The notes beneath the pieces are model-generated. The model was not told where the DNA came from, did no database searches, and saw only the letters and a list, made by a program, of their open reading frames with translations. From an uncultured Methanosarcinales archaeon (GTDB lineage: Archaea > Nanobdellota > Nanobdellia > Woesearchaeales > GW2011-AR9), in the NCBI GenBank assembly GCA_964599955.1, contig CAZRHO010000001.1:296-44023 (forward strand): a DNA stretch of 43,728 nucleotides. The letters are read 5' to 3'. Both the position numbers and the translations under genes were made by a program. Each line of letters opens with the position of its first letter. The first letter of the stretch is position 1. Positions 6,044-37,222 of this stretch are shown one piece after another.

Positions 6044-6417
6044 AACTTGATTATGATTGTCCTTTCAGTAGGGTTAGGGAAATTATGCAAGAACGTGGGT
6101 GGTTACTCTTAAAATTAGATTTATTAAATCTCCAAGTTTACAAAACTAAAAGAGGCTACCACGTTTATGCTAATATTAAATCTAAACTTAAACAATTTGA
6201 AATGTTATTAATTCAATCATTGTTAGATAGTGATTTTAATAGGGAAATATTAAATTTCCTTCGTGCGCATAAAAAAGGTAATGCTGGGAACTACCTATTT
6301 GATTTTAAATCATTTTGGACTGATTATAATCTTAAAAGCCATAGGGAAAGAGTAAGAAAACCATTATTAGAAAAACAATTATTAAACATAATGAAAAATA
6401 AAGAGGTGGAAATATGA
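6028..6417 (+). CDS. hypothetical protein with AEP (primase-polymerase)-like motif spacing
   Basis: Internal ATG of track ORF 5989..6417. Contains KLDYDCP (DxD), then KTKRGYHVY about 35 aa later, then LLDSDFN about 22 aa after that. Confidence 0.45.
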   Translation: MGTEIKLDYDCPFSRVREIMQERGWLLLKLDLLNLQVYKTKRGYHVYANIKSKLKQFEMLLIQSLLDSDFNREILNFLRAHKKGNAGNYLFDFKSFWTDYNLKSHRERVRKPLLEKQLLNIMKNKEVEI

Positions 6418-7268
6418 AAACAAAAGGAGAAGAAATTAAAATGGGTAAAGAAATAAGTAATCCTAAAATAATTATTACTGGAGATGGATTTATTCCAGAA
6501 GAAATTACAAAAGCATTAAAGGATGAGTTTGAAGTTTTTAGGATTAATTCAACAACAGAACAAGACGTATGTAACTTTAATCTTAAAATGAAAGGAGTTG
6601 ATATGGTTATCCATTGTTCAGAATTGAGGGATGCACCAGACCCACATATTCTTCAATGGAATGTAATGGGTACAGCAAATATATTAAATTGGTGTGACGA
6701 AAATAAAGTGAGTAACTTTGTTTATATTTCAACTGGAGATATTTATGGAAATAAAACAGTATTCCCTTCAAATGAAACTTTTAAACCAGACCCACTTGGA
6801 ATGTACGCAACTACAAAATATATGGGAGAACTATTAGTTGAATTGTGGCATAAAACAAAAGGAATTAAAACATTAATGTTAAGACCATTTGAAGTATATG
6901 GAGATAATGAAATTCAATCAATTGTAGGTAAAATGAAAATTACACCAAACGAAGGAACGATTGAAGGAAGTCCTGATATTACAAAAGATTTTATGCACGT
7001 AAAAGATTTGGTTAGGGTTGTTAAAATGTATGCGGAAAGAAAAACATTTAACAACCTTACTTTGAATGTAGGAACAAAAAAAGAAACATCATTTGAAGAA
7101 GTTGCGAAAATGTTAGGAAAGGAGTTTTCCTATAAACCAAATAAATCAATACCAAGAAGGAGTATGGCTGATATTGAACATTTGGATTTTACAGGATTAA
7201 AACCGAAGGTGGAACTTGAAAAATGGATAGGTACAACGCAAACGGAAAAGGATACATCTACCAAATGA
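6414..7268 (+). CDS. NAD(P)-dependent epimerase/dehydratase (extended SDR)
   Basis: Contains IIITGDGFIPEE (Rossmann), YISTGDIYG, YATTKYMGE (YxxxK) and RPFEVYG. An alternative start at 6441 has AAGGAG upstream. Confidence 0.7.
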   Translation: MKTKGEEIKMGKEISNPKIIITGDGFIPEEITKALKDEFEVFRINSTTEQDVCNFNLKMKGVDMVIHCSELRDAPDPHILQWNVMGTANILNWCDENKVSNFVYISTGDIYGNKTVFPSNETFKPDPLGMYATTKYMGELLVELWHKTKGIKTLMLRPFEVYGDNEIQSIVGKMKITPNEGTIEGSPDITKDFMHVKDLVRVVKMYAERKTFNNLTLNVGTKKETSFEEVAKMLGKEFSYKPNKSIPRRSMADIEHLDFTGLKPKVELEKWIGTTQTEKDTSTK

Positions 7269-27647: not shown

Positions 27648-27705
27648 GACAAAAACAAACTTTTTTTTACAAAACAATAAATAAATTGTGAGGTTAAGAA
27701 ATAAA

Positions 27706-28155
27706 ATGGCAAAAGCAGATATTTTACCAGTAGTAGGTGGTGGAGTTGCAGGTCTTGGTGTTGGAGTTTTAGGAGATTGGGTTTCCAATAAGTATCCTCA
27801 AAAATCAGCAGATGGGAAAACAACTTACCAACCAAAGGACAAAGATTTTTCATACTTTAAAGATAAGTCTTTACTAATTAACGCAGGTGTTGGAGTATTA
27901 GGACTTGTAGCAATGAGTATGCAAAGAAACTTTGGAATTTCAAGTGATGTAGCTTTAGGAGCAGGAGTAGCAGGAACAGTAGCTTTAACAAAAGCAATTG
28001 GTCGTGTTTACAGTGTAATGCAAGAAAAAGATTCAACATCTGGAAATGAATGGGCTAACTATGCACGTCAAAGAGCAATGCAACAGCATTACGCTTACCG
28101 AAGAGCAAGTTTACCAAACACACAAATTGAATCAGGCTTATTTAACATTAAATAA
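27706..28155 (+). CDS. Gly-rich membrane protein
   Basis: Internal ATG of track ORF 27688..28155. MAKADILPVVGGGVAGLGVGVLG... Confidence 0.6.
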   Translation: MAKADILPVVGGGVAGLGVGVLGDWVSNKYPQKSADGKTTYQPKDKDFSYFKDKSLLINAGVGVLGLVAMSMQRNFGISSDVALGAGVAGTVALTKAIGRVYSVMQEKDSTSGNEWANYARQRAMQQHYAYRRASLPNTQIESGLFNIK

Positions 28156-28240
28156 GTTAACAAAAAAAAATATGACCGATTCGCAACGCTAACCCTTAAA
28201 TAAGGAAGGTAGAGATTGATTGGTCAGGAGAAGATATAAA

Positions 28241-28738
28241 ATGCCAGTAGCAGATTTACAGTTGAAGGGATATGCCCTTCAGGCAGTGCAGAAAGCACTC
28301 CAAATGATTAGCCAAAAGGCTCAAACAACTTTAGGAAGTGATTTTGAATTACGTGATATGCGACCTCAAGATTTAACTTTCACCAACCCAACCTTTAGCT
28401 TCAGTTTAACAGCAACAAGCAGTTATCACGCTATTGTTGATGACGGAACTATTGGAAACAACCGATGGATTGCTATCTACGGATTACGAACAAACCAAAC
28501 AGCAGAATTAATTTCAGGATTAAAAGTAACTGCTGGTGGTGCATTGAAAATGGATAGAAACATTGAGTGGGTATCAGCAACTCAAGATAAATCCCTTTAC
28601 TTTGACCCAGTTATCGTAGAGCAAAACACTCTGATTAAGATTGAAGGTTACAACGTAGGAACAACCACCGATACAGGTTACGTTTTAGTTTTCTTGGGAA
28701 TTGTAGCAGAGAAGAAAGGACAAGTTCTTGCACCATAA
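28241..28738 (+). CDS. beta-rich putative virion structural protein (capsid candidate)
   Basis: Internal ATG of track ORF 28220..28738, with CAGGAG upstream. Visibly less AT-rich codon usage than neighbours. A long oligo-T terminator lies downstream. Confidence 0.45.
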   Translation: MPVADLQLKGYALQAVQKALQMISQKAQTTLGSDFELRDMRPQDLTFTNPTFSFSLTATSSYHAIVDDGTIGNNRWIAIYGLRTNQTAELISGLKVTAGGALKMDRNIEWVSATQDKSLYFDPVIVEQNTLIKIEGYNVGTTTDTGYVLVFLGIVAEKKGQVLAP

Positions 28739-28748
28739 GTGCATTAAC

Positions 28749-28773
28749 TTTTTTTTTATTTTTTTATTTTTTT
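28749..28773 (+). terminator. long T-rich terminator
   Basis: T9-A-T7-A-T7 after the stop at 28738. Confidence 0.5.
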
Positions 28774-28817
28774 GACCTCATTGGTCACACACACAAAAAC
28801 ATACGAGGTAACGTAAA

Positions 28818-29321
28818 ATGGGAAATTACATAGATTATGAGAAAGGTTTCGCTGTTGGAGATGTTCTTAAAGTTAGGAATTGTTTTATGCGTATTAAAGG
28901 CAAAGACAGCATAAGAATTTACAAGGACTTTGATTCAACAGCGACAGGGGTTACAAGTTCAGATACTTCAATTGACGAACTTAATCCAAAATATGGTACA
29001 GAAATATACCAAATAGTTCAAGTAGTACCTTCACACAATGTTCAAGTGTTTGTTAAACAACCAGCTTCAACATTAAGATGGGGAACAAATCTTGCACCTT
29101 CTATTGGATTTGTATCTGATAGAATTAGTTCTTATGATGGTGGAGAAACAAATAACATCTTCATAACAAACTACCAACAACCAGTTCTTCAAGTTAAAAA
29201 TACAACTTTGAAAACTATTTCAGCACCAAGAGTATTCTTTTTCGGTTGGAAATACCAAATTGAAGAATTAAAAGATTATTCAGGAGCGTACACACCAGTT
29301 CAGTACGGAGGGTTTGATTAA
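28818..29321 (+). CDS. beta-rich putative virion structural protein
   Basis: Track ORF with GAGGT upstream. The sequence alternates hydrophobic and polar residues. Confidence 0.45.
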   Translation: MGNYIDYEKGFAVGDVLKVRNCFMRIKGKDSIRIYKDFDSTATGVTSSDTSIDELNPKYGTEIYQIVQVVPSHNVQVFVKQPASTLRWGTNLAPSIGFVSDRISSYDGGETNNIFITNYQQPVLQVKNTTLKTISAPRVFFFGWKYQIEELKDYSGAYTPVQYGGFD

Positions 29322-29323
29322 AA

Positions 29324-29764
29324 ATGGGACTTAAAAAACAAATAACTTCATTTGATAGAACAGAAGAGTATGATTCAGTTTTATCAACTTGGAAAAGGAA
29401 AATTAAACCTAACAATTTAATGAACCTTACAACTGCAGTAACAACGACTACAACTGGAGATGTTTCTTTAATAACCACAGTAGTTGGTGCTAACGAAGAA
29501 GTTTACATTTATGGTGTATCATCAGCAATTGGAACATCAGGGATTGCTTTAGCAATTCAGGTAGATAGTGCAAACGTATTTACAATTAATTCAAATATGT
29601 CAAACACTTTATCAAATCCAGATGCACCAATTGCAGTAGTTCAAGCAAGTTCAACAATTGGTTTGGTGGTATTAGAAACAACTGTAACTGACGAAACATT
29701 CATTGTAAATTTAGTTGCAAAGATTGAACCATTACCAGCAAAAGCTGAACCACAATTAGGTTAA
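29324..29764 (+). CDS. beta-rich putative virion structural protein
   Basis: Track ORF. T/V/A/S-rich. Followed by a long oligo-T terminator. Confidence 0.45.
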   Translation: MGLKKQITSFDRTEEYDSVLSTWKRKIKPNNLMNLTTAVTTTTTGDVSLITTVVGANEEVYIYGVSSAIGTSGIALAIQVDSANVFTINSNMSNTLSNPDAPIAVVQASSTIGLVVLETTVTDETFIVNLVAKIEPLPAKAEPQLG

Positions 29765-29770
29765 AATTAA

Positions 29771-29795
29771 TTTTTCTTTTTTTTCTTTTTCTTTT
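29771..29795 (+). terminator. long T-rich terminator
   Basis: TTTTTCTTTTTTTTCTTTTTCTTTT after the stop at 29764. Confidence 0.5.
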
Positions 29796-29804
29796 AGTAG
29801 CAAC

Positions 29805-29843
29805 AATAGTTTTATATAGTAAGAGATTTCTTGGTGTTGTATA
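29805..29843 (+). promoter_or_regulatory. TATA-box promoter of the RHH / glycosylation operon
   Basis: TTTATATA at 29811-29818 ends 26 nt before ATG 29844, immediately after an oligo-T terminator. Confidence 0.5.
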
Positions 29844-29972
29844 ATGCCTCAAATAACAATAAAGTTTATTCCAGATGATTTAGATAAAAGAATTAGGATT
29901 TTTATGATTCAGGAAGATTTCTCCAGGAAAGACGAAGCAATAGTAGAGGCATTAGAGAGGTTTTTCAAATGA
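29844..29972 (+). CDS. ribbon-helix-helix (CopG/Arc-like) small regulator (42 aa)
   Basis: Read from the sequence: MPQITIKFIPDDLDKRIRIFMIQEDFSRKDEAIVEALERFFK (strand-helix-helix). A TATA box lies 26 nt upstream. ATGA overlap with the first glycosyltransferase. Confidence 0.5.
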   Translation: MPQITIKFIPDDLDKRIRIFMIQEDFSRKDEAIVEALERFFK

Positions 29973-31123
29973 CAAATGTAATGATATTAGGTGTAAGCCC
30001 GAACTTTTCAACAGGAATGAGTAAAATATCTAAATATTTATGGGAAGGATTAACCAAATATGAAGATTTGAATGTATATATGGTAGGGTTACAAACATTA
30101 GGTAGGCAAGAAAATAAAATGTTATTACCAGTTGATATTGATTCTTCTGGTGGGGAAAGTGTCCTTGAATGTTATATGAAAAATTATAAGATAGATGTTT
30201 TGATTACGTTATTAGATACCTATATGGATGCGTATCAATACATTCCAGAACTTGTAAAAAGAATGGGTGTTAAATGGATTTGTCATTGTAATATTAATAC
30301 TAATCCTGTTTTTCAAAGACTTTATCAAACAATCAAAACAGCAGACCATTTAATTGCACAGACAGAATTTGGAAAAGGATTATTAGACAAATTAAAATTA
30401 AATAACAATTCTGTAATTTATCACGGAGTTAATACTAAAGAATTTTATCCTAAGGCAGTTGAAAGATTAAAAGAATTTACTTTTATTGCAGTAGGAACAA
30501 ATAAGCCTGAACAAAAGAATTGGATGGGATTATTAAAATCATTTAGATATTTAATTCACAATTTAGGGGTAAAAGACGTTCATTTAAAGATAGTTAGTAA
30601 TCCTACTGAACCAGGGGGAATGGATTTTGGTCTTGCTATTGCTCAAGCAAACTTAACGGAATATGTTACAATCATTCCAACAATTAGAGATTTAGGTTTT
30701 ATGGAAAATTTAATGGGGGAATTGTATAATTCTTCTGATTGTTATGTTTCTGCTTCATTTGGAGAAGGATTTGGTTTATGTCAAGCAGAATGTTATGCGT
30801 GTGGAGTTCCATCAGTAGTTAGTGGGTTTAGTGCTATGGGGGAATTAGTTGATGATAGTAAATCTGGTTATAAATCTGAATACGAATTATATCCTCTTGT
30901 TAAATTAATTGCTGAACAAGGTATTCCTAATACTATTGATTTTGCAGAGAAAATGAAAAAGATTAAGGAACTTCCAAAAGAAGAATATGAAAAACTTTCT
31001 TTAAATGGTGTTGAGTGGGCTAATAAGAATACGTGGGAAAAGATTATTCCTAAATGGTACGACGTAATTAAGAAAGTTGATGTTACAAAAAACGATTATG
31101 AAACAGGGGAGATTGGAATATGA
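29969..31123 (+). CDS. glycosyltransferase, GT-B fold (GT4/GT1-like)
   Basis: SASFGEGFGLCQAECYACGVPSVVS (E-x7-E region). Confidence 0.8.
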   Translation: MTNVMILGVSPNFSTGMSKISKYLWEGLTKYEDLNVYMVGLQTLGRQENKMLLPVDIDSSGGESVLECYMKNYKIDVLITLLDTYMDAYQYIPELVKRMGVKWICHCNINTNPVFQRLYQTIKTADHLIAQTEFGKGLLDKLKLNNNSVIYHGVNTKEFYPKAVERLKEFTFIAVGTNKPEQKNWMGLLKSFRYLIHNLGVKDVHLKIVSNPTEPGGMDFGLAIAQANLTEYVTIIPTIRDLGFMENLMGELYNSSDCYVSASFGEGFGLCQAECYACGVPSVVSGFSAMGELVDDSKSGYKSEYELYPLVKLIAEQGIPNTIDFAEKMKKIKELPKEEYEKLSLNGVEWANKNTWEKIIPKWYDVIKKVDVTKNDYETGEIGI

Positions 31124-31491
31124 GATTTATAACATTGAGATTAAAGTATTGTTGGTGGAAATCAAAAAGGTTACGAAAGAAGTATTGTCATAAAGGAATA
31201 CATAAAGTAGTTTATTCAAGCCACATTTTTAGTGGAACTAATATGAAAACAAAGAAATTTAAATTTTTATCTTGTCAATTTTGTGAATATAAGTTTTTTG
31301 TCAAAGAAACTCAAAGAAAACAATACAAAAAATACTCTACTAAGACTAAAGAAGGATTCTCTGCGTTGTTAAAATCTCTTTCGTTGGAAAAACCGAAGCA
31401 AACAGTACCTTCGGTTGGGATTAAAGCAAAGAAGCTTCGGTCAGTTAGTAAACGTATTAAAAAAGATATTGAAAAGGAAATTAAAGAATGA
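31120..31491 (+). CDS. basic hypothetical protein
   Basis: Track ORF with ATGA overlaps on both sides. K-rich. Contains CHKGIH ... CQFCEY. Confidence 0.5.
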   Translation: MRFITLRLKYCWWKSKRLRKKYCHKGIHKVVYSSHIFSGTNMKTKKFKFLSCQFCEYKFFVKETQRKQYKKYSTKTKEGFSALLKSLSLEKPKQTVPSVGIKAKKLRSVSKRIKKDIEKEIKE

Positions 31492-32516
31492 AGTTAGCAA
31501 TCATAGTGGGGGAAAGACCAGCATTTATTCGGTTAGTTCCTACTATAAGAAAATGTAAGAAATATTTTGATACAACTGTTATATGGACAGACCAAAACTT
31601 TGATAAATCCTTATCAACCCAATTCTTTGATGAGTTTAATATTAAGCCAGACGTATTCTTAAAAACCGATAGAAAGGTAGGAATAGATTATATGGGTGCT
31701 GTAATGCCTTTAATTAGTTCCAGTTTGAAAGATATTGACCCTGACTGCGTGTTAGTACTCGGAGACACGAACGCTTCATTCACGGCAGTTTATGTAGCTA
31801 AACGGATGGGATATAAAGTTTTTCATTTAGAAGCTGGGAATAGATGTTATGACCCTGATAGAGTTCCTGAAGAAGTTAACAGATATTGTATTGATAGTAT
31901 TTCCGATTGGCATTTATGTTATACTCAAAGGGCAAGAGAACAATTATTGTTAGAAGGAAAGAAACCAGAAAGAGTAATTGTGGTGGGAAACCCTTTGGTT
32001 GAGATGGTTAGGGCTTACGAAACAGACGAAATATATAGGCAAAACTATTTTTTAGTTACATTACATAGGAAAGAAAACATTAATGACGAAAAAAGATTGG
32101 AAGCAATATTTGATGTTCTTGAGCGTTTACCTCACAAAGTAAATGTAAGTAAACATCCAAGTTTAGCAAATAAAGTGGCTGGTTGGAGTTTTAATGATAA
32201 TATTGAACTATTTACTCCATCTAATTTTACAGATTTCCTTAAATTAGAAAAAAGTGCAGTTTGTATAATAACTGATAGTGGTGGTGTTCCAGAAGAAGCT
32301 CATTTGTTAGGAATACCTTGTGTTCTATTAAGATATAGTACAGAACGACCAGAATTGTTAGAAAGTAATAATATGGTTGTTTGTTCAAGACCCGAAGATT
32401 TAAACGATGCAATTCAGATAGCAATAGGAGAAAATAGTCGTAAAGTAAGTATTCCAGAATATCATCAATCAGTTTCAAGCAACATAGTAAAAATATTAAT
32501 GAGGTATAAGGATTGA
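31488..32516 (+). CDS. UDP-N-acetylglucosamine 2-epimerase family protein
   Basis: LGDTNASF, FHLEAGNRCYD, PEEVNRYCIDSISD, LHRKEN and ITDSGGVPEEAHLLGIPCVLLRYSTERPE. Confidence 0.85.
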   Translation: MKLAIIVGERPAFIRLVPTIRKCKKYFDTTVIWTDQNFDKSLSTQFFDEFNIKPDVFLKTDRKVGIDYMGAVMPLISSSLKDIDPDCVLVLGDTNASFTAVYVAKRMGYKVFHLEAGNRCYDPDRVPEEVNRYCIDSISDWHLCYTQRAREQLLLEGKKPERVIVVGNPLVEMVRAYETDEIYRQNYFLVTLHRKENINDEKRLEAIFDVLERLPHKVNVSKHPSLANKVAGWSFNDNIELFTPSNFTDFLKLEKSAVCIITDSGGVPEEAHLLGIPCVLLRYSTERPELLESNNMVVCSRPEDLNDAIQIAIGENSRKVSIPEYHQSVSSNIVKILMRYKD

Positions 32517-32578
32517 ACCCACAGATAATAGAGTAACAGAGGAATATTGTGAGTGGATTAATCAATTCGGTTAAAAAA

Positions 32579-32974
32579 ATGACATATATAAATAAAACAG
32601 ACGATAGGGGGAATTTCATAAATGTTCCTTTAAATAATGGAGAAAAGAGAATTTATTTGATTGAAAATCATCAGTTAAATACAATTAGGGCTTTTCACGA
32701 ACACAAAGATGAGAATTTAATTTTACATTGTTTAAGAGGCATTTGGAAAGTGGTCCACTATAATTTAGGGGAAGATAAACCAATTACTACAATTATGAAA
32801 AAGGGAGATTATTTGAGAGTAATTTCTCCAGCTGGAAATGGTTTAATGAATTTATCGGAAGATAATTTGATGATGGTTATTGCTGATTTATCTCTATCAG
32901 AAGTTGTGGAAGAAGAAGTTAAAGCACCTTGGGATAAATTTGGGGAAGAAATATGGTTAGCAAAAAGAAGGTAG
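32579..32974 (+). CDS. cupin-fold sugar-nucleotide epimerase/isomerase-like protein
   Basis: Internal ATG of track ORF 32549..32974 (which starts at a GTG). TDDRGNFINV and IRAFHEHK...LRGIWKV resemble the DxRGxF / RG-H motifs of RmlC or ketoisomerase cupins. Confidence 0.45.
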   Translation: MTYINKTDDRGNFINVPLNNGEKRIYLIENHQLNTIRAFHEHKDENLILHCLRGIWKVVHYNLGEDKPITTIMKKGDYLRVISPAGNGLMNLSEDNLMMVIADLSLSEVVEEEVKAPWDKFGEEIWLAKRR

Positions 32975-33921
32975 TTGTCACAGGAAGTGCAGGGTACATT
33001 GGCTCTTGGGTAGTTGAATTACTTTTAGATAAAGGGTACTTTGTTATAGGTGTGGATAATTTCCTTGTGGGAGATGATACTCACAAAAAATTTAGAGATA
33101 ACGAAGATTTTGTTGAAATAGTAGGGGATATATCAGACGAAGCAACTTGGTTACGTGCGTTTAAGTATAAACCACAATATGTTATCAATTTGGCTGGTAT
33201 CGTTGGAGACCCAGCTTGTTTAAACGATTTAAAGCGTTCATTTAAAGTCAACGCAGAAGCTTCTGAAATTGGTGCAAGGGTTGCTAATGTGTATAATGTA
33301 AAGAAATTTATTCACGCTTCAACTTGTTCAATATACGGAAATCAAAAAGGTGTATTAGATGAGAAATCTCCACAAACTCCAGTAGATTTTTATGGACAAA
33401 CAAAATTATCTGCAGAAAGGTTAGTGGAAAGACAATTACCAATAGAAACAAGAATTTTCTTAAGGTTTGGAACAGCTTACGGATTTAGTAATAGAATGAG
33501 GTTTGATTTGGTTGTTAATAGTTTAACTCGTAAAGGGTATTGGGATAAAAACTTAACAATTTTTGGAACAGGGAAACAAAGAAGACCTTTTACTCATTGT
33601 TACGATTTAGCAAGGGCTTGTGTATTCTTTGTAGAAAACGATTCTTACCTTGGTGTATTTAATGTCGTGGGAGAAAACTTTGAAATAGGGGAAATAGCTA
33701 AATTAATCAATAACGATTTAGATGATGTATCTTTAGAGAACATAGAAAAGATGGAAGATTTTAGAGATTACGAAGTAACTTCAAACGTATTAACTGCGTT
33801 AGGATTTGAATTTAAGTTTAATGTAAAAAGAGGAATACACGAAATAATCCAAAAATTCAAGAATAACGAATTGTTAGAATGTAAAGAAGATAAATATTAC
33901 AACGATAAATTGGGGGCATAA
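32953..33921 (+). CDS. NAD-dependent sugar-nucleotide epimerase/dehydratase (extended SDR)
   Basis: VVVTGSAGYIGSWV, ASTCSIYG and YGQTKLSAE (YxxxK). Confidence 0.85.
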   Translation: MVSKKKVVVTGSAGYIGSWVVELLLDKGYFVIGVDNFLVGDDTHKKFRDNEDFVEIVGDISDEATWLRAFKYKPQYVINLAGIVGDPACLNDLKRSFKVNAEASEIGARVANVYNVKKFIHASTCSIYGNQKGVLDEKSPQTPVDFYGQTKLSAERLVERQLPIETRIFLRFGTAYGFSNRMRFDLVVNSLTRKGYWDKNLTIFGTGKQRRPFTHCYDLARACVFFVENDSYLGVFNVVGENFEIGEIAKLINNDLDDVSLENIEKMEDFRDYEVTSNVLTALGFEFKFNVKRGIHEIIQKFKNNELLECKEDKYYNDKLGA

Positions 33922-33925
33922 AAAA

Positions 33926-34144
33926 ATGGAAGAAAAAGAAAAACAAACTCCTTTAGATATGGAGTTTGCAAATAATTTATTTACAATGATGAATAGTTAC
34001 GTTCAGAGGGGAGTTCCAATTCCAACAATAATAATGCACGTTGAGATGGCTAAATACCAAGCACTTAATGTATTTTTTAATCATAAACCAGTTCACGCAG
34101 AACCACCAAAACCAAAAACAAAAAAGAAGGGGAAGAAAAAATGA
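33926..34144 (+). CDS. hypothetical protein
   Basis: Track ORF with ATGA overlap to the next gene. Confidence 0.45.
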   Translation: MEEKEKQTPLDMEFANNLFTMMNSYVQRGVPIPTIIMHVEMAKYQALNVFFNHKPVHAEPPKPKTKKKGKKK

Positions 34145-34887
34145 AAGTAATGATAACAGGGAGTAATGGAAGATTAGGGAAAGAACTAAAGAACGTATTT
34201 CCTGATGCAATACACACTTCAAGAAATGAGTTAGATTTTAGAGATGCAATTTCTTGTGCAACATTTATTCAAGAACACAAACCAGACGTAATTCTTCATA
34301 TAGGGGCTAAAACAAGTATTCCTCCTTGCGACAAGGATAGACCAGGGGCTTGGAGTTCAAATGTAGTGGGAACAGAAAATTTAGTTAATGCTTGTTTAAT
34401 GTTTAAACCAGACGTTTACTTTGTTTATATATCAACTCCTTGTATATTTAGTGGAGAGGAAGAAGAAATTGATGAGGAAACTTTACCATTTCCAAAGAAC
34501 TTTTATGGTTTAACTAAATTAGGTGGAGAATTAATGTGTAGGAAGTTAGAACACTATTGTATAACAAGAGCAAACTTTGTAGCTTATGAGAAGTGGGAAC
34601 ATCCAAAAGCCTTTTCAGATAGGTTTAGTAATTATTTGTTTGCTCACGATTTAGCTTTGGCTTACAAAGATATTGTTAACCAAAAACCTGTTGGAGTAAT
34701 TCATTTAGTAGGGGATAAAAAATTATCTATGCACGACTTGGCTCATTTGTGTCCTGATAGCGACCACGTTAAAGAATACACATTAGAGGAGTATTACCAA
34801 GACAACCCTAACAAAGGTAAACTAACAAAGAATATGATGTTAGTATCAAAAAGATGGAGAACGTATGAAATTACAACCAAAGATTAG
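34141..34887 (+). CDS. RmlD-like (dTDP-4-dehydrorhamnose reductase family) SDR reductase
   Basis: MKVMITGSNGRLGKEL and YGLTKLGGE. At 248 aa it is short for the family. Confidence 0.65.
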   Translation: MKVMITGSNGRLGKELKNVFPDAIHTSRNELDFRDAISCATFIQEHKPDVILHIGAKTSIPPCDKDRPGAWSSNVVGTENLVNACLMFKPDVYFVYISTPCIFSGEEEEIDEETLPFPKNFYGLTKLGGELMCRKLEHYCITRANFVAYEKWEHPKAFSDRFSNYLFAHDLALAYKDIVNQKPVGVIHLVGDKKLSMHDLAHLCPDSDHVKEYTLEEYYQDNPNKGKLTKNMMLVSKRWRTYEITTKD

Positions 34888-35569
34888 TGTGATTATTCCT
34901 TGTTACAATGCGTATAAGTGGATTGATTTTGCAGTTAATTCTGCTATGAATCAATTATATCCCCCACACGAAATAATAATTGTAAATGATGGAAGTAGGG
35001 ATGGAACTACAAAGAAGTTAGAAAAGATTAATCAAAGGGATGATAGGATTAAAGTTTTCCATAACGACAAGAACAGGGGGATTGGTTACACTTTAAATCA
35101 AGGAATAAAAAATATGACAGGAGATGTATTCTGTTGGTTAAGTGCTGATGATGAGTGGCTTCCAAATAAATTAAGGGAACAAGTAAAGGCATATAACGAA
35201 AATCAAGATTGGGTATTATATACCGATTGGAATTTTATTAATGAAAAAGGAGAAGTTAAAGGAACTCAAAAATGTTTTCGTGGAAATCAAGAAGAATTTA
35301 GAATGTTATCTTTAAGAACTTGTACAATAAATTTTTCATCAATATTTATTCCAAAACATATTTTAGATGATGTTGGTTTATTTACAGAGGATTTACGTTT
35401 TGGAGAAGATTACCAATGGTTATTAAGAGCAATTCTAAAAAATGTAGAATTTAAGTTAATTGGAGAAACGCTTGTTAATTATAGAAACCATAAAGATATG
35501 TTAACAAACGAAGTAATAAATCAAACGGGTGATATGAATGAAAGAATCAGAAAAAGTCTTGGTATTTAA
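34865..35569 (+). CDS. glycosyltransferase family 2
   Basis: ISVIIPCYNAYKWI...IIIVNDGSRDGT...WLSADDEW (DxD-type). Confidence 0.85.
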   Translation: MKLQPKISVIIPCYNAYKWIDFAVNSAMNQLYPPHEIIIVNDGSRDGTTKKLEKINQRDDRIKVFHNDKNRGIGYTLNQGIKNMTGDVFCWLSADDEWLPNKLREQVKAYNENQDWVLYTDWNFINEKGEVKGTQKCFRGNQEEFRMLSLRTCTINFSSIFIPKHILDDVGLFTEDLRFGEDYQWLLRAILKNVEFKLIGETLVNYRNHKDMLTNEVINQTGDMNERIRKSLGI

Positions 35570-35581
35570 AGAGGTATATAA

Positions 35582-37222
35582 ATGGTAGAAAAACATAATT
35601 TTGTATTTGAAAAGGAATATTGGGAAATTGAAGGAAAAGAAAATCCAATTGATGCAATCTGTAAAGGTTTTAGTGTTGAAGATTTTAAAAATAAGAAAGA
35701 ATCTTTAATCTTTCATCTTGAACCAGAATTTAACAAAGACCAAACATTTCTTGATTTAGGTTGTGGGATTGGAAGAGTTGCAAGGTGGGTTGCACCTAAT
35801 ATAAAAGAATATCACGGCGTAGATATATCAAGCACAATGATTGAAAACGCTAAAGAATACAATAAAGATTTTGATAACGTAAATTTTCATCAAGTATCTT
35901 CTTGCGATTTAAAATTGTTTGAAGATAATAAATTTGACGTAATTTTATCAGAATTAGTTTTTATACATTTAACACCAGAAGAGCAAAAGAAATATTTAGT
36001 AGAGATTAATCGTGTTTTAAAAAAAGATGGAACTTTATTGATTGAGATTCCTAAAGAGGAATATTACATTAATGGTTTTTCAATTGATGAGATAAAATTA
36101 AACCTTCCAAACTTTGAATGGGCGTTTAAAAAATCAAACAACATTTATACTTATCAGATAAAAGCAAAAAAAAGGACAGACAAATCAATCCCTTTAAACG
36201 AAAACATTTTAGTTTTAAATTTTAACAATAGTCAAGAATATTTAGGGGGTTCTGAATTAGTTACGGAACGTTTGGCGAATGTTTTTAAAACAAAAGTTAT
36301 ATCTGCAAAAACTTCTGCTCAACTTATGGGTTACGAATATAATACCTATTATAAATATTCAATAATTGACAGATGTATCATATTTGATAAGTATTTAGAA
36401 CAATACGAAAAAATAAATAAAGCAAATGTTATAATTAGGAATAGTTGTTGTGGTGCTTTTTATGAATCAAAAACTCCGATGATTACTTTATATCAAGAGC
36501 CTTCTTCTTTGATTAACGAATTTATGTTATCTCAAAATATAACTGGGATGGATTTTGATTTTAGTTATCTCTATCCTTTACTTCAAAGGGAATGTTCAAA
36601 AAATAGTTTTAACGTAGCAAATAGTAACTTTATGAAACATTATATGGATAAGGAAGGGATAAAATGCGACAAAGTTATTCCTTTAGGGGTTAATTTAGAT
36701 TTATTCACACCGATTGATATTCCTAAACCTGAAAATTACAAAGATAAGAAGGTAGGTATTTGGGTAGGTAAACATCATCCTTTGAAATGGGGGTTTATGC
36801 CTGAACTAATTAAAAACAATCCTGACATTCATTGGATTTGTGTATTCTTTGGTGGTTCTGTAAAAATTCCACGCAAATTAAAGAACTTTGAAGTTTATGA
36901 AAACTTAACTCAAGAAGAAATGGTGGGGTTATATAATATTGCTGATTTTTGTATAAGCACTTCTCCAGTAGAAAGTTTTGGGTTTGTTCCATTGGAAGCG
37001 ATGGCTTGTGGTAAACCTGTAATTGCTTACAAAACAGGGTTTCTTTGGGATGTAGAGGACTTTCAGGGGGGGATAGTGGTAGATACCTATAAATTAGAAA
37101 GTTATCAGGAAGCCCTTAATAACTTATTTAAGAAAGAATGGACACCAAGAGAAGAAGCAAAGAAGTGGGATATTAAGAAATGGGAAGATTCTATTAAGGG
37201 AGTAGTAAAAGATTTACAATGA
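35582..37222 (+). CDS. fusion protein: class-I SAM methyltransferase (N-terminal) plus GT-B glycosyltransferase (C-terminal)
   Basis: N-terminus: FLDLGCGIGRVARWV ... LKKDGTLLIE. C-terminus: STSPVESFGFVPLEAMACGKPVIAYKTG. Confidence 0.8.
   Translation: MVEKHNFVFEKEYWEIEGKENPIDAICKGFSVEDFKNKKESLIFHLEPEFNKDQTFLDLGCGIGRVARWVAPNIKEYHGVDISSTMIENAKEYNKDFDNVNFHQVSSCDLKLFEDNKFDVILSELVFIHLTPEEQKKYLVEINRVLKKDGTLLIEIPKEEYYINGFSIDEIKLNLPNFEWAFKKSNNIYTYQIKAKKRTDKSIPLNENILVLNFNNSQEYLGGSELVTERLANVFKTKVISAKTSAQLMGYEYNTYYKYSIIDRCIIFDKYLEQYEKINKANVIIRNSCCGAFYESKTPMITLYQEPSSLINEFMLSQNITGMDFDFSYLYPLLQRECSKNSFNVANSNFMKHYMDKEGIKCDKVIPLGVNLDLFTPIDIPKPENYKDKKVGIWVGKHHPLKWGFMPELIKNNPDIHWICVFFGGSVKIPRKLKNFEVYENLTQEEMVGLYNIADFCISTSPVESFGFVPLEAMACGKPVIAYKTGFLWDVEDFQGGIVVDTYKLESYQEALNNLFKKEWTPREEAKKWDIKKWEDSIKGVVKDLQ

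Follow-up and report, generated by a model that had tools for sequence, protein, structure and literature searches.

Which sugar would a compact glycan-building locus on an archaeal contig make, for what surface, and does the locus belong to a mobile element or to the genome with which it was binned? The locus (the island) is a run of ten genes at 29844-37222 of a 43,728-nucleotide stretch of DNA, referred to as the window, which corresponds to positions 296-44023 of contig C1 (CAZRHO010000001.1; 49,590 bp). C1 is the longest contig of a metagenome-assembled genome (MAG) of 1.09 Mb in 152 contigs with 30% G+C, and is probably a ~50-kb archaeal virus-like element binned with a ~1.1-Mb DPANN-like archaeal MAG. 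We put at slightly better than even the chance that the island is an operon of such an element, whose enzymes remodel UDP-N-acetylhexosamine (UDP-HexNAc) by a non-dehydrating route and then assemble a glycan.

All ten open reading frames (ORFs) were confirmed at their coordinates, co-directional on the + strand, and the ORF list and domain calls of a preliminary description of this DNA were borne out, with Pfam/NCBIfam matches for seven of the products and no family match for those of 42, 123 and 72 aa. Four of the junctions are 4-nt ATGA overlaps and two are overlaps of 22-23 nt, the others being gaps of 4, 12 and 32 nt, so that the junctions are mostly ATGA or overlapping (6/9), as had been noted; a purine-rich Shine-Dalgarno (SD)-like motif lies 5' of every ORF. 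The TATA box TTTATATA (29811-29818, + strand) stands 33 nt upstream of the first ATG, with the same TATA-to-ATG spacing as at gene 19505. The window contains 14 copies of the 8-mer TTTATATA, where shuffled sequences have 7.6 +/- 3. A second perfect copy on the + strand, at 34424-34431 inside the RmlD-like gene, may have arisen by chance or may serve the last two genes as an internal promoter. The earlier claim of one TATA box thus holds for intergenic DNA but not for the RmlD-like gene, whereas that of no internal terminators stands, a scan for bacterial-type terminators having found in the island one weak hairpin that does not rise above shuffles. Upstream, a 25-nt T-rich tract read directly from the sequence, TTTTTCTTTTTTTTCTTTTTCTTTT (29771-29795, + strand), lies 3' of a 146-aa gene and would be a probable archaeal terminator isolating the operon. 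Ten tightly packed genes behind one archaeal-type promoter are best read as one operon. No transmembrane or hydrophobic segment was found in any island product, and all are predicted to be soluble, seven of them with clear enzyme folds.

Four of these enzymes bear on the sugar. The extended short-chain dehydrogenase/reductase (SDR; 32953-33921, 322 aa, PF01370 at 2e-36) carries GxxGxxG and the catalytic T...YxxxK, but in its motif ASTCSIYG the residues S-T-C-S stand where 4,6-dehydratases have T-D-E. A motif alignment finds S[TS]CS[IV]YG kept in four members of the SDR family, and against TIGR01181, the 4,6-dehydratase model, the protein scores 66 bits for a cut-off of 365. Among solved structures it comes closest to 6VO6 (2e-34, spanning residues 4-304; 1e-21 for the next best), with UDP-glucuronic acid and UDP-glucose 4-epimerases following. 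We take 6VO6 to be Cj1427, a non-deoxygenating GDP-heptose C4-dehydrogenase that binds NADH tightly and regenerates NAD+ by means of alpha-ketoglutarate; the island SDR and the 6VO6 chain both lack the dehydratase Asp/Glu pair and share S[TS]CS[IV]YG and a segment RMRFDLVVN, of the form RMR(F/L)DL(V/L)VN. Together these features point to a probable nucleotide-sugar C4-dehydrogenase.

The cupin (32549-32974, 141 aa, GTG start) matches PF05523 (FdtA) at 1e-5, its score of 25.7 lying above the gathering score of 23. A profile of its family, in which F-H-x-H is invariant, finds FdtA (7e-9), QdtA (2e-8), archaeal RmlC (2e-6) and the Cap5F cupin (0.005), then heptose 3-epimerases, all of which act on nucleoside diphosphate (NDP)-4-keto sugars. 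By these matches the protein is assigned to the FdtA/QdtA/RmlC superfamily of sugar-nucleotide 4-keto isomerases and epimerases. The FdtA/QdtA 3,4-ketoisomerases are its best profile match, with the catalytic His pair kept, but the island has no aminotransferase or acyltransferase as in the pathways to the 3-acetamido-3,6-dideoxyhexoses Fuc3NAc and Qui3NAc; rather, the keto product would be reduced. An RmlD-like NAD(P)H keto-reductase (34141-34887, 248 aa, PF04321 at 8e-29) is at hand for that step, with intact motifs and a match to PDB 2ggs at 7e-18.

The fourth enzyme (31488-32516) belongs to Epimerase_2 (PF02350, 6e-77, 259 bits). It scores 195.1 bits against TIGR00236, the WecB equivalog, below the cut-off of 210.15, and only 71 bits against NeuC, and is predicted to be a non-hydrolysing, CapG-like UDP-HexNAc 2-epimerase. 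The best PDB match is CapG (7ya2, 1.7e-60), with Methanocaldococcus jannaschii WecB at 7e-51, and the motif H-x-EAGNRC is common to the island enzyme and CapG where WecB and WbpI carry EAGLRS. The 2-epimerase proposed in the preliminary description is therefore upheld, with CapG, the FnlC equivalent, as its closest relative by PDB match and motif. Relatives in its clade, 48-60% identical, lie on virus-like contigs; a scan of IMG/VR with the single epimerase found nothing, and one with the clade alignment found only relatives of 30-38% identity.

Epimerase, cupin, SDR and reductase co-occur on the related contigs L045 and L057, on L008, in part on L009 and on the 167-kb IMG/VR contig L030, and the four-enzyme cassette recurs on several unrelated large viral contigs. 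Recurrence of the four together suggests one pathway. In the route we favour, the element would take UDP-N-acetylglucosamine (UDP-GlcNAc) from its host, and the 322-aa SDR would oxidise C4 to give a 4-keto sugar that retains its 6-hydroxyl. The cupin would then epimerise or isomerise the 4-keto intermediate at C3 and/or C5, or shift the keto group between C3 and C4, before the short RmlD-like enzyme reduces it; the CapG-like epimerase would invert C2 at some point in the order. The product would be a rare isomer of UDP-N-acetylhexosamine, possibly L-configured.

In Campylobacter jejuni, Cj1427 acts with the C3/C5-epimerising cupin Cj1430 and the C4-reductase Cj1428 to epimerise GDP-heptose without 6-deoxygenation (PMC10680097), and the island would follow the same logic of non-dehydrating C4 oxidation, cupin rearrangement and reduction. 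The two systems differ in that the island cupin has the FdtA-type H-x-H and the reductase is RmlD-like, not GDP-fucose-synthase-like. The substrate here would probably be UDP-HexNAc, given the Epimerase_2 enzyme in the cassette and the lack of heptose genes, a genomic context that argues for it rather than GDP-heptose.

The remaining enzymes of the island would put the sugar to use. The first, a GT4 glycosyltransferase of GT-B fold (29969-31123, 384 aa, soluble, PF13692 at 1e-12), has the E-x7-E motif EGFGLCQAE; orthologues 41-43% identical occupy the same position in L045, L057 and L056, and by this comparison the locus consistently has this GT4 as its first enzyme. A GT2 enzyme of GT-A fold, predicted to be inverting (34865-35569, 234 aa, soluble, PF00535 at 2e-35, DxD-type motif SADDEW), resembles TuaG, PglI and WcaA, enzymes of polysaccharide and lipid-linked oligosaccharide synthesis. 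The operon ends with a fusion (35582-37222) of a class I S-adenosylmethionine (SAM) methyltransferase (residues ~50-160, PF08241 at 3e-22) and a second GT4 (residues ~205-546, PF00534 at 3e-15, E-x7-E motif ESFGFVPLE). Among 8000 scored candidates every homologue is a GT4 standing alone (352-361 aa), and methyltransferases are encoded close by in genes of their own; the fusion appears to be unique to this island. The GT2-then-GT4 pair is likewise kept in L045, L053 and L054, with separate methyltransferase genes adjoining. Together, the GT4, the GT2 and the fusion would act in the cytoplasm to assemble a short glycan with O-methylation, placed either straight on a protein or on a lipid carrier of the host, from which host AglB would later transfer it.

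The earlier proposal of nucleotide-sugar modification and transfer, with a methyltransferase, by an element-borne operon is supported. To have called the island self-contained was an overstatement, however: it encodes no nucleotidyltransferase, priming phosphoglycosyltransferase, flippase or oligosaccharyltransferase, whereas the MAG encodes GlmS and STT3/AglB, and the island would therefore depend on its host. Nor did the targets first suggested, the adjacent structural or Cys-rich surface proteins, find support in the sequence, the candidate structural proteins and Cys-rich proteins nearby showing no enrichment of N-glycosylation sequons.

The setting of the operon is seen most clearly on L045, a 36.8-kb groundwater contig with the sister contig L057, which is syntenic with the window and carries the only close cupin relative in a collection of 5.8 billion proteins. 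The shared order starts with a thioredoxin-like 76-aa gene, followed by a minus-strand Dam methyltransferase and the small gene beside it, by four of the five small proteins that precede the island (30-60% identity) and by a small ribbon-helix-helix (RHH)-like ORF. The GT4 (41%), an epimerase of only 32% identity, the cupin (52%), the SDR (35%), the GT2 (35%) and the RmlD-like enzyme (58%, 249 aa) then follow, and the order closes with a stand-alone GT4 equivalent to the C-terminal half of the fusion (43%). The short contig L048 carries the 146-aa protein, a 45-aa RHH-like homologue and the GT4 with the same ATGA overlap. On L056 (Ga0209514_10000848, 57.9 kb) the same upstream genes lead to a head of a 46-aa ORF, the GT4 and a second GT4, but the stretch L056:11014-20405 has no sugar-nucleotide cassette. 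In its place stand a radical SAM/SPASM enzyme, a fusion of HIT and AAA_18 (kinase) domains, two GT2s, a methyltransferase and a B12-binding radical SAM enzyme. By gene order, then, the glycan locus holds a fixed position in an element family, its head always formed by a small RHH-like ORF and a GT4 and its content further downstream varying between lineages. The preliminary description had raised the possibility that the island is a host chromosomal segment flanking a provirus; instead, it holds the same position in related elements.

The block of small proteins directly upstream (155, 172, 167 and 146 aa; 27688-29764, + strand), 30-60% identical and syntenic in L045, L056 and L057, marks this conserved position, and its members are candidate virion proteins. 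The 146-aa protein (29324-29764, + strand) belongs to a family of 23 representative clusters of 139-151 aa. Its AlphaFold2 (AF2) model is a jelly roll with a predicted local distance difference test score (pLDDT) of 84, and its fold matches, at template modelling (TM) scores of 0.46-0.57, are birnavirus VP2, the SPV1 and HHIV-2 capsid proteins, Ena fibres and phage fibre tips. The protein is a candidate capsid or fibre protein, the modelled jelly roll being compatible with a virion protein but not diagnostic of one. When the 167-aa pair was used for pattern scans, two loci came up in metagenomes and none in species-representative genomes or in IMG/VR. The element ORFs scanned gave no PHROG capsid or terminase match, window ORFs of at least 40 aa contain no Walker A motif except one chance match in a low-complexity region, and nothing on the ~50-kb element could be recognised as a packaging ATPase, a helicase or a terminase.

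Several points weigh against this reading of the chemistry and of its bearer. That 6VO6 is Cj1427 is our presumption, and the invariant Cys beside the catalytic Thr of the SDR might support other chemistry. CapG and M. jannaschii WecB stand almost equally close to the epimerase in identity (36% and 35%), so that the CapG-like subtype follows from the bit score and one motif, and L045 and L030 have another epimerase subtype. The H-x-H of the cupin is of the FdtA type and not that of RmlC, which makes a 3,4-ketoisomerase step as likely as epimerisation, and UDP-HexNAc as substrate is probable by virtue of the Epimerase_2 family only. With no capsid, packaging ATPase or integrase identified and generic jelly-roll matches (TM scores of 0.57 or less), the term virus is unproven, and the link to the host extends no further than binning, the MAG having no CRISPR (clustered regularly interspaced short palindromic repeats) array and thus offering no spacer link.

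The purpose of the glycan could lie elsewhere than on a virion. The same enzymes could form an auxiliary metabolic module that remodels the envelope of the infected cell, its S-layer or surface glycans, blocking superinfection or changing attachment to a partner cell, and we regard this as possible although on the doubtful side. All the enzymes would act in the cytoplasm and the island has no oligosaccharyltransferase, while contig C4 of the MAG carries AglB together with distant GT2 and GT4 homologues; the lack of sequon enrichment in candidate virion proteins points the same way, and surveys of viruses of DPANN archaea and of the Candidate Phyla Radiation (CPR) interpret their glycosyltransferase genes in these terms (PMC11310336, PMC12647753). 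Against this, the locus sits within a block of candidate structural and surface genes and keeps its fixed place beside that block in all relatives. The two purposes, envelope remodelling and virion glycosylation, are in any case compatible with each other.

Less likely, in our view, is the pathway that the preliminary description had proposed, an FnlABC/CapEFG or WbvBRD-like route to a UDP-6-deoxy-N-acetyl-L-hexosamine (N-acetyl-L-fucosamine, L-FucNAc; N-acetyl-L-rhamnosamine, L-RhaNAc; or N-acetyl-L-quinovosamine, L-QuiNAc) that is then transferred. Like FnlABC/CapEFG, which make UDP-L-FucNAc, and WbvBRD, which makes UDP-L-QuiNAc, the island pairs a CapG-like 2-epimerase with a short pathway from UDP-GlcNAc to a rare HexNAc beside glycosyltransferase genes. 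CapG, with the shared HxEAGNRC, is the best solved relative of the epimerase, and the weak match of the cupin profile to the Cap5F cupin would allow the cupin and the RmlD-like enzyme to be a split CapF. That part of the proposal which concerned the epimerase stands, but the dehydratase does not follow. The SDR matches PF02719, the FnlA/CapE family, only as a weak secondary hit (2e-7 against 2e-36 for PF01370), none of CapE, PseB and PglF is among its 60 best PDB matches, and its invariant Cys-Ser falls where every class of 4,6-dehydratase has Asp/Glu or Asp-Lys. Cupin and reductase are encoded apart here and bear only a remote relationship to CapF, which is not among the PDB matches of the RmlD-like enzyme.

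A second extended SDR lies far from the island at 6414-7268 (284 aa; phrog_540 'nucleotide-sugar epimerase', 1.5e-35; motif ITGDGFIP). As the missing 4,6-dehydratase it was rejected, for it has S-T-G-D at the catalytic strand, again without the Asp/Glu pair, and a degenerate Rossmann motif. What a 6-deoxy set looks like in this clade can be seen at L010:890-5661, where an epimerase 58% identical to that of the island stands beside an RmlD-like enzyme and an SDR that is truly of the PF02719 type (TGGTGSWG). This pairing lends the 6-deoxy route some support by association, but by its sequence the L010 set is genuinely FnlABC-like and the set in the window is not.

That C1 is simply host DNA, and the island an ordinary chromosomal locus for decorating N-glycans or the S-layer, is improbable. 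The MAG itself is archaeal in character: its STT3/AglB matched only archaeal control genomes, a 1198-aa ORF on contig C17 is presumably the large subunit of PolD, which it resembles, and the order to which it belongs counts well above a hundred families, with genomes of ~1 Mb, as is the case in DPANN lineages. C1 was binned with it and has a similar composition (31% G+C against 30%); C1 shows no terminal repeats or circularity, no integrase and no capsid hallmark, and SDR homologues of up to 39% identity occur in 45 of 201 genomes of the order. However, the tetranucleotide profile of C1 is the third most deviant of 47 contigs, though C1 is the longest, and the island is nearer to C1 than to the MAG. 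C1 has no nucleotide similarity to the other MAG contigs, and for the epimerase, the cupin and the RmlD-like enzyme the rest of the MAG offers no homologous gene. No tRNA was found in the window, and the larger C1 ORFs that were scanned matched no housekeeping family, being ORFans apart from two DNA methyltransferases, a nucleotidyltransferase and the second SDR. The family of the 146-aa protein occurs in 1 of 401 genomes of the order, while the same gene order recurs in groundwater and in other metagenome contigs. In several metagenomes the island turns up again, on six separately assembled contigs in all, with three base differences at most (at least 99.9% identity); a megablast search of the island against phage records gave no match.

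Glycosylation of the element's own DNA against restriction, as in T4, was rejected as very improbable: GT-B enzymes and two DNA methyltransferases do lie on one element, but no hydroxymethylase or other base-modifying enzyme was detected, the building of a rare HexNAc with O-methylation is typical of surface glycans, and the GT2 has the relatives named above.

The three small ORFs of the operon lie outside the enzymatic core. The first, a 42-aa protein at its head (29844-29972), 5' of the GT4, had been labelled RHH, a label that its position, strand/helix/helix pattern and modelled topology favour but for which the family matches are all sub-threshold. Small ORFs of the same pattern precede the GT4 in L048 (45 aa, 59% identity), L045 and L056 (46 aa). 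In Pfam, the 42-aa protein matches FitA-like RHH at 0.11 and DUF7120 at 0.064, its L045 equivalent VAPB_antitox at 1.2e-4 and its L056 equivalent DUF7557 at 0.006, each below cut-off. The AF2 model (pLDDT 77) has an extended N terminus and two helices, a topology that fits RHH without a significant match: a Foldseek search with it returned VapB11 and NikR at the top with E > 1, and PDB profile searches built from three and from six of the small RHH-like ORFs found nothing significant. Small RHH regulators of the CopG/Arc superfamily, such as SvtR and AvtR, are known from archaeal viruses and plasmids. The 42-aa protein is like them in size, strand-helix-helix pattern and place at the head of an operon, but neither sequence nor fold gave a significant match. 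On the model the RHH assignment is plausible, and the protein is a probable DNA-binding regulator that would control the operon.

The other two are a basic ORFan (31120-31491, 123 aa, isoelectric point 10.3, four Cys) and a 72-aa ORFan (33926-34144) with a Lys-rich tail, an SD-like motif and in-frame codon usage. In each of the three small ORFs the annotated frame is the one preferred by codon-usage log-odds, the first 41 codons of the basic ORF being neutral; an alternative gene caller places the start of that ORF at 31243, which would shorten it to 82 aa. The basic protein has no family match and is missing from L045 and L056, by which comparison it is lineage-specific, and no homologues of the 72-aa protein were found, which is likewise lineage-specific. 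Neither these nor the 42-aa ORF show homology to the small ORFs interspersed in L008, L010 and L045.

Two observations on the related loci stand apart from the window. Homing-endonuclease-like genes lie between sugar-cassette genes at L045:13972-15108 (six NUMOD3 motifs plus HNH) and at L030:9144-10001 (LAGLIDADG). The epimerase-cupin-SDR-reductase set at L008:1-12347 (JAAGZO010000825.1, GCA_024206195.1, 94.7 kb) is accompanied by an ATP-grasp enzyme, four methyltransferases, an adenosine phosphosulfate (APS)-kinase fusion and a sulfotransferase, and adjoins a 3053-aa Laminin_G_3 protein; this gene content points to glycans with methyl and sulfate groups on a further large virus-like contig.

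Viruses that encode glycosylation include the chloroviruses, and Mimivirus and Megavirus have acetamido-sugar clusters. To our knowledge, the biochemistry of virus-encoded glycan synthesis comes mainly from such giant eukaryotic viruses, and for archaeal elements, especially those associated with DPANN archaea, there are gene lists only. The island resembles the known cases in that nucleotide-sugar enzymes, glycosyltransferases and a methyltransferase lie near the structural genes of a mobile element. It differs in being part of an unclassified, probably archaeal ~50-kb element, in a combination of enzymes unlike characterised viral pathways and in the variability of the locus. The earlier statement that such glycosylation is sparsely characterised in archaeal viruses was fair, but glycosyltransferase and nucleotide-sugar genes have already been reported on DPANN and CPR viruses and on Borgs (PMC12647753, PMC11310336, 10.1101/2024.11.05.622173). 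What is new is this cassette, of uncharacterised chemistry, together with a locus that keeps its place but varies in content within a family of elements not described before.

Only tentatively would we go further and see in the locus a hypervariable determinant of the glycan coat of an undescribed family of DPANN jelly-roll viruses, with a cassette that leads by a non-dehydrating route to an undescribed UDP-L-N-acetylhexosamine. The island also carries a caution, namely that a 2-epimerase, an SDR and a reductase found together do not automatically mean L-FucNAc synthesis. It offers a compact set of four soluble enzymes that is open to testing and would probably make a rare N-acetylhexosamine by a route unlike the textbook 6-deoxy pathways. 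For the element family as a whole, a fixed position with variable content resembles an O-antigen locus, and this variability suggests a surface-exposed glycan under diversifying selection.

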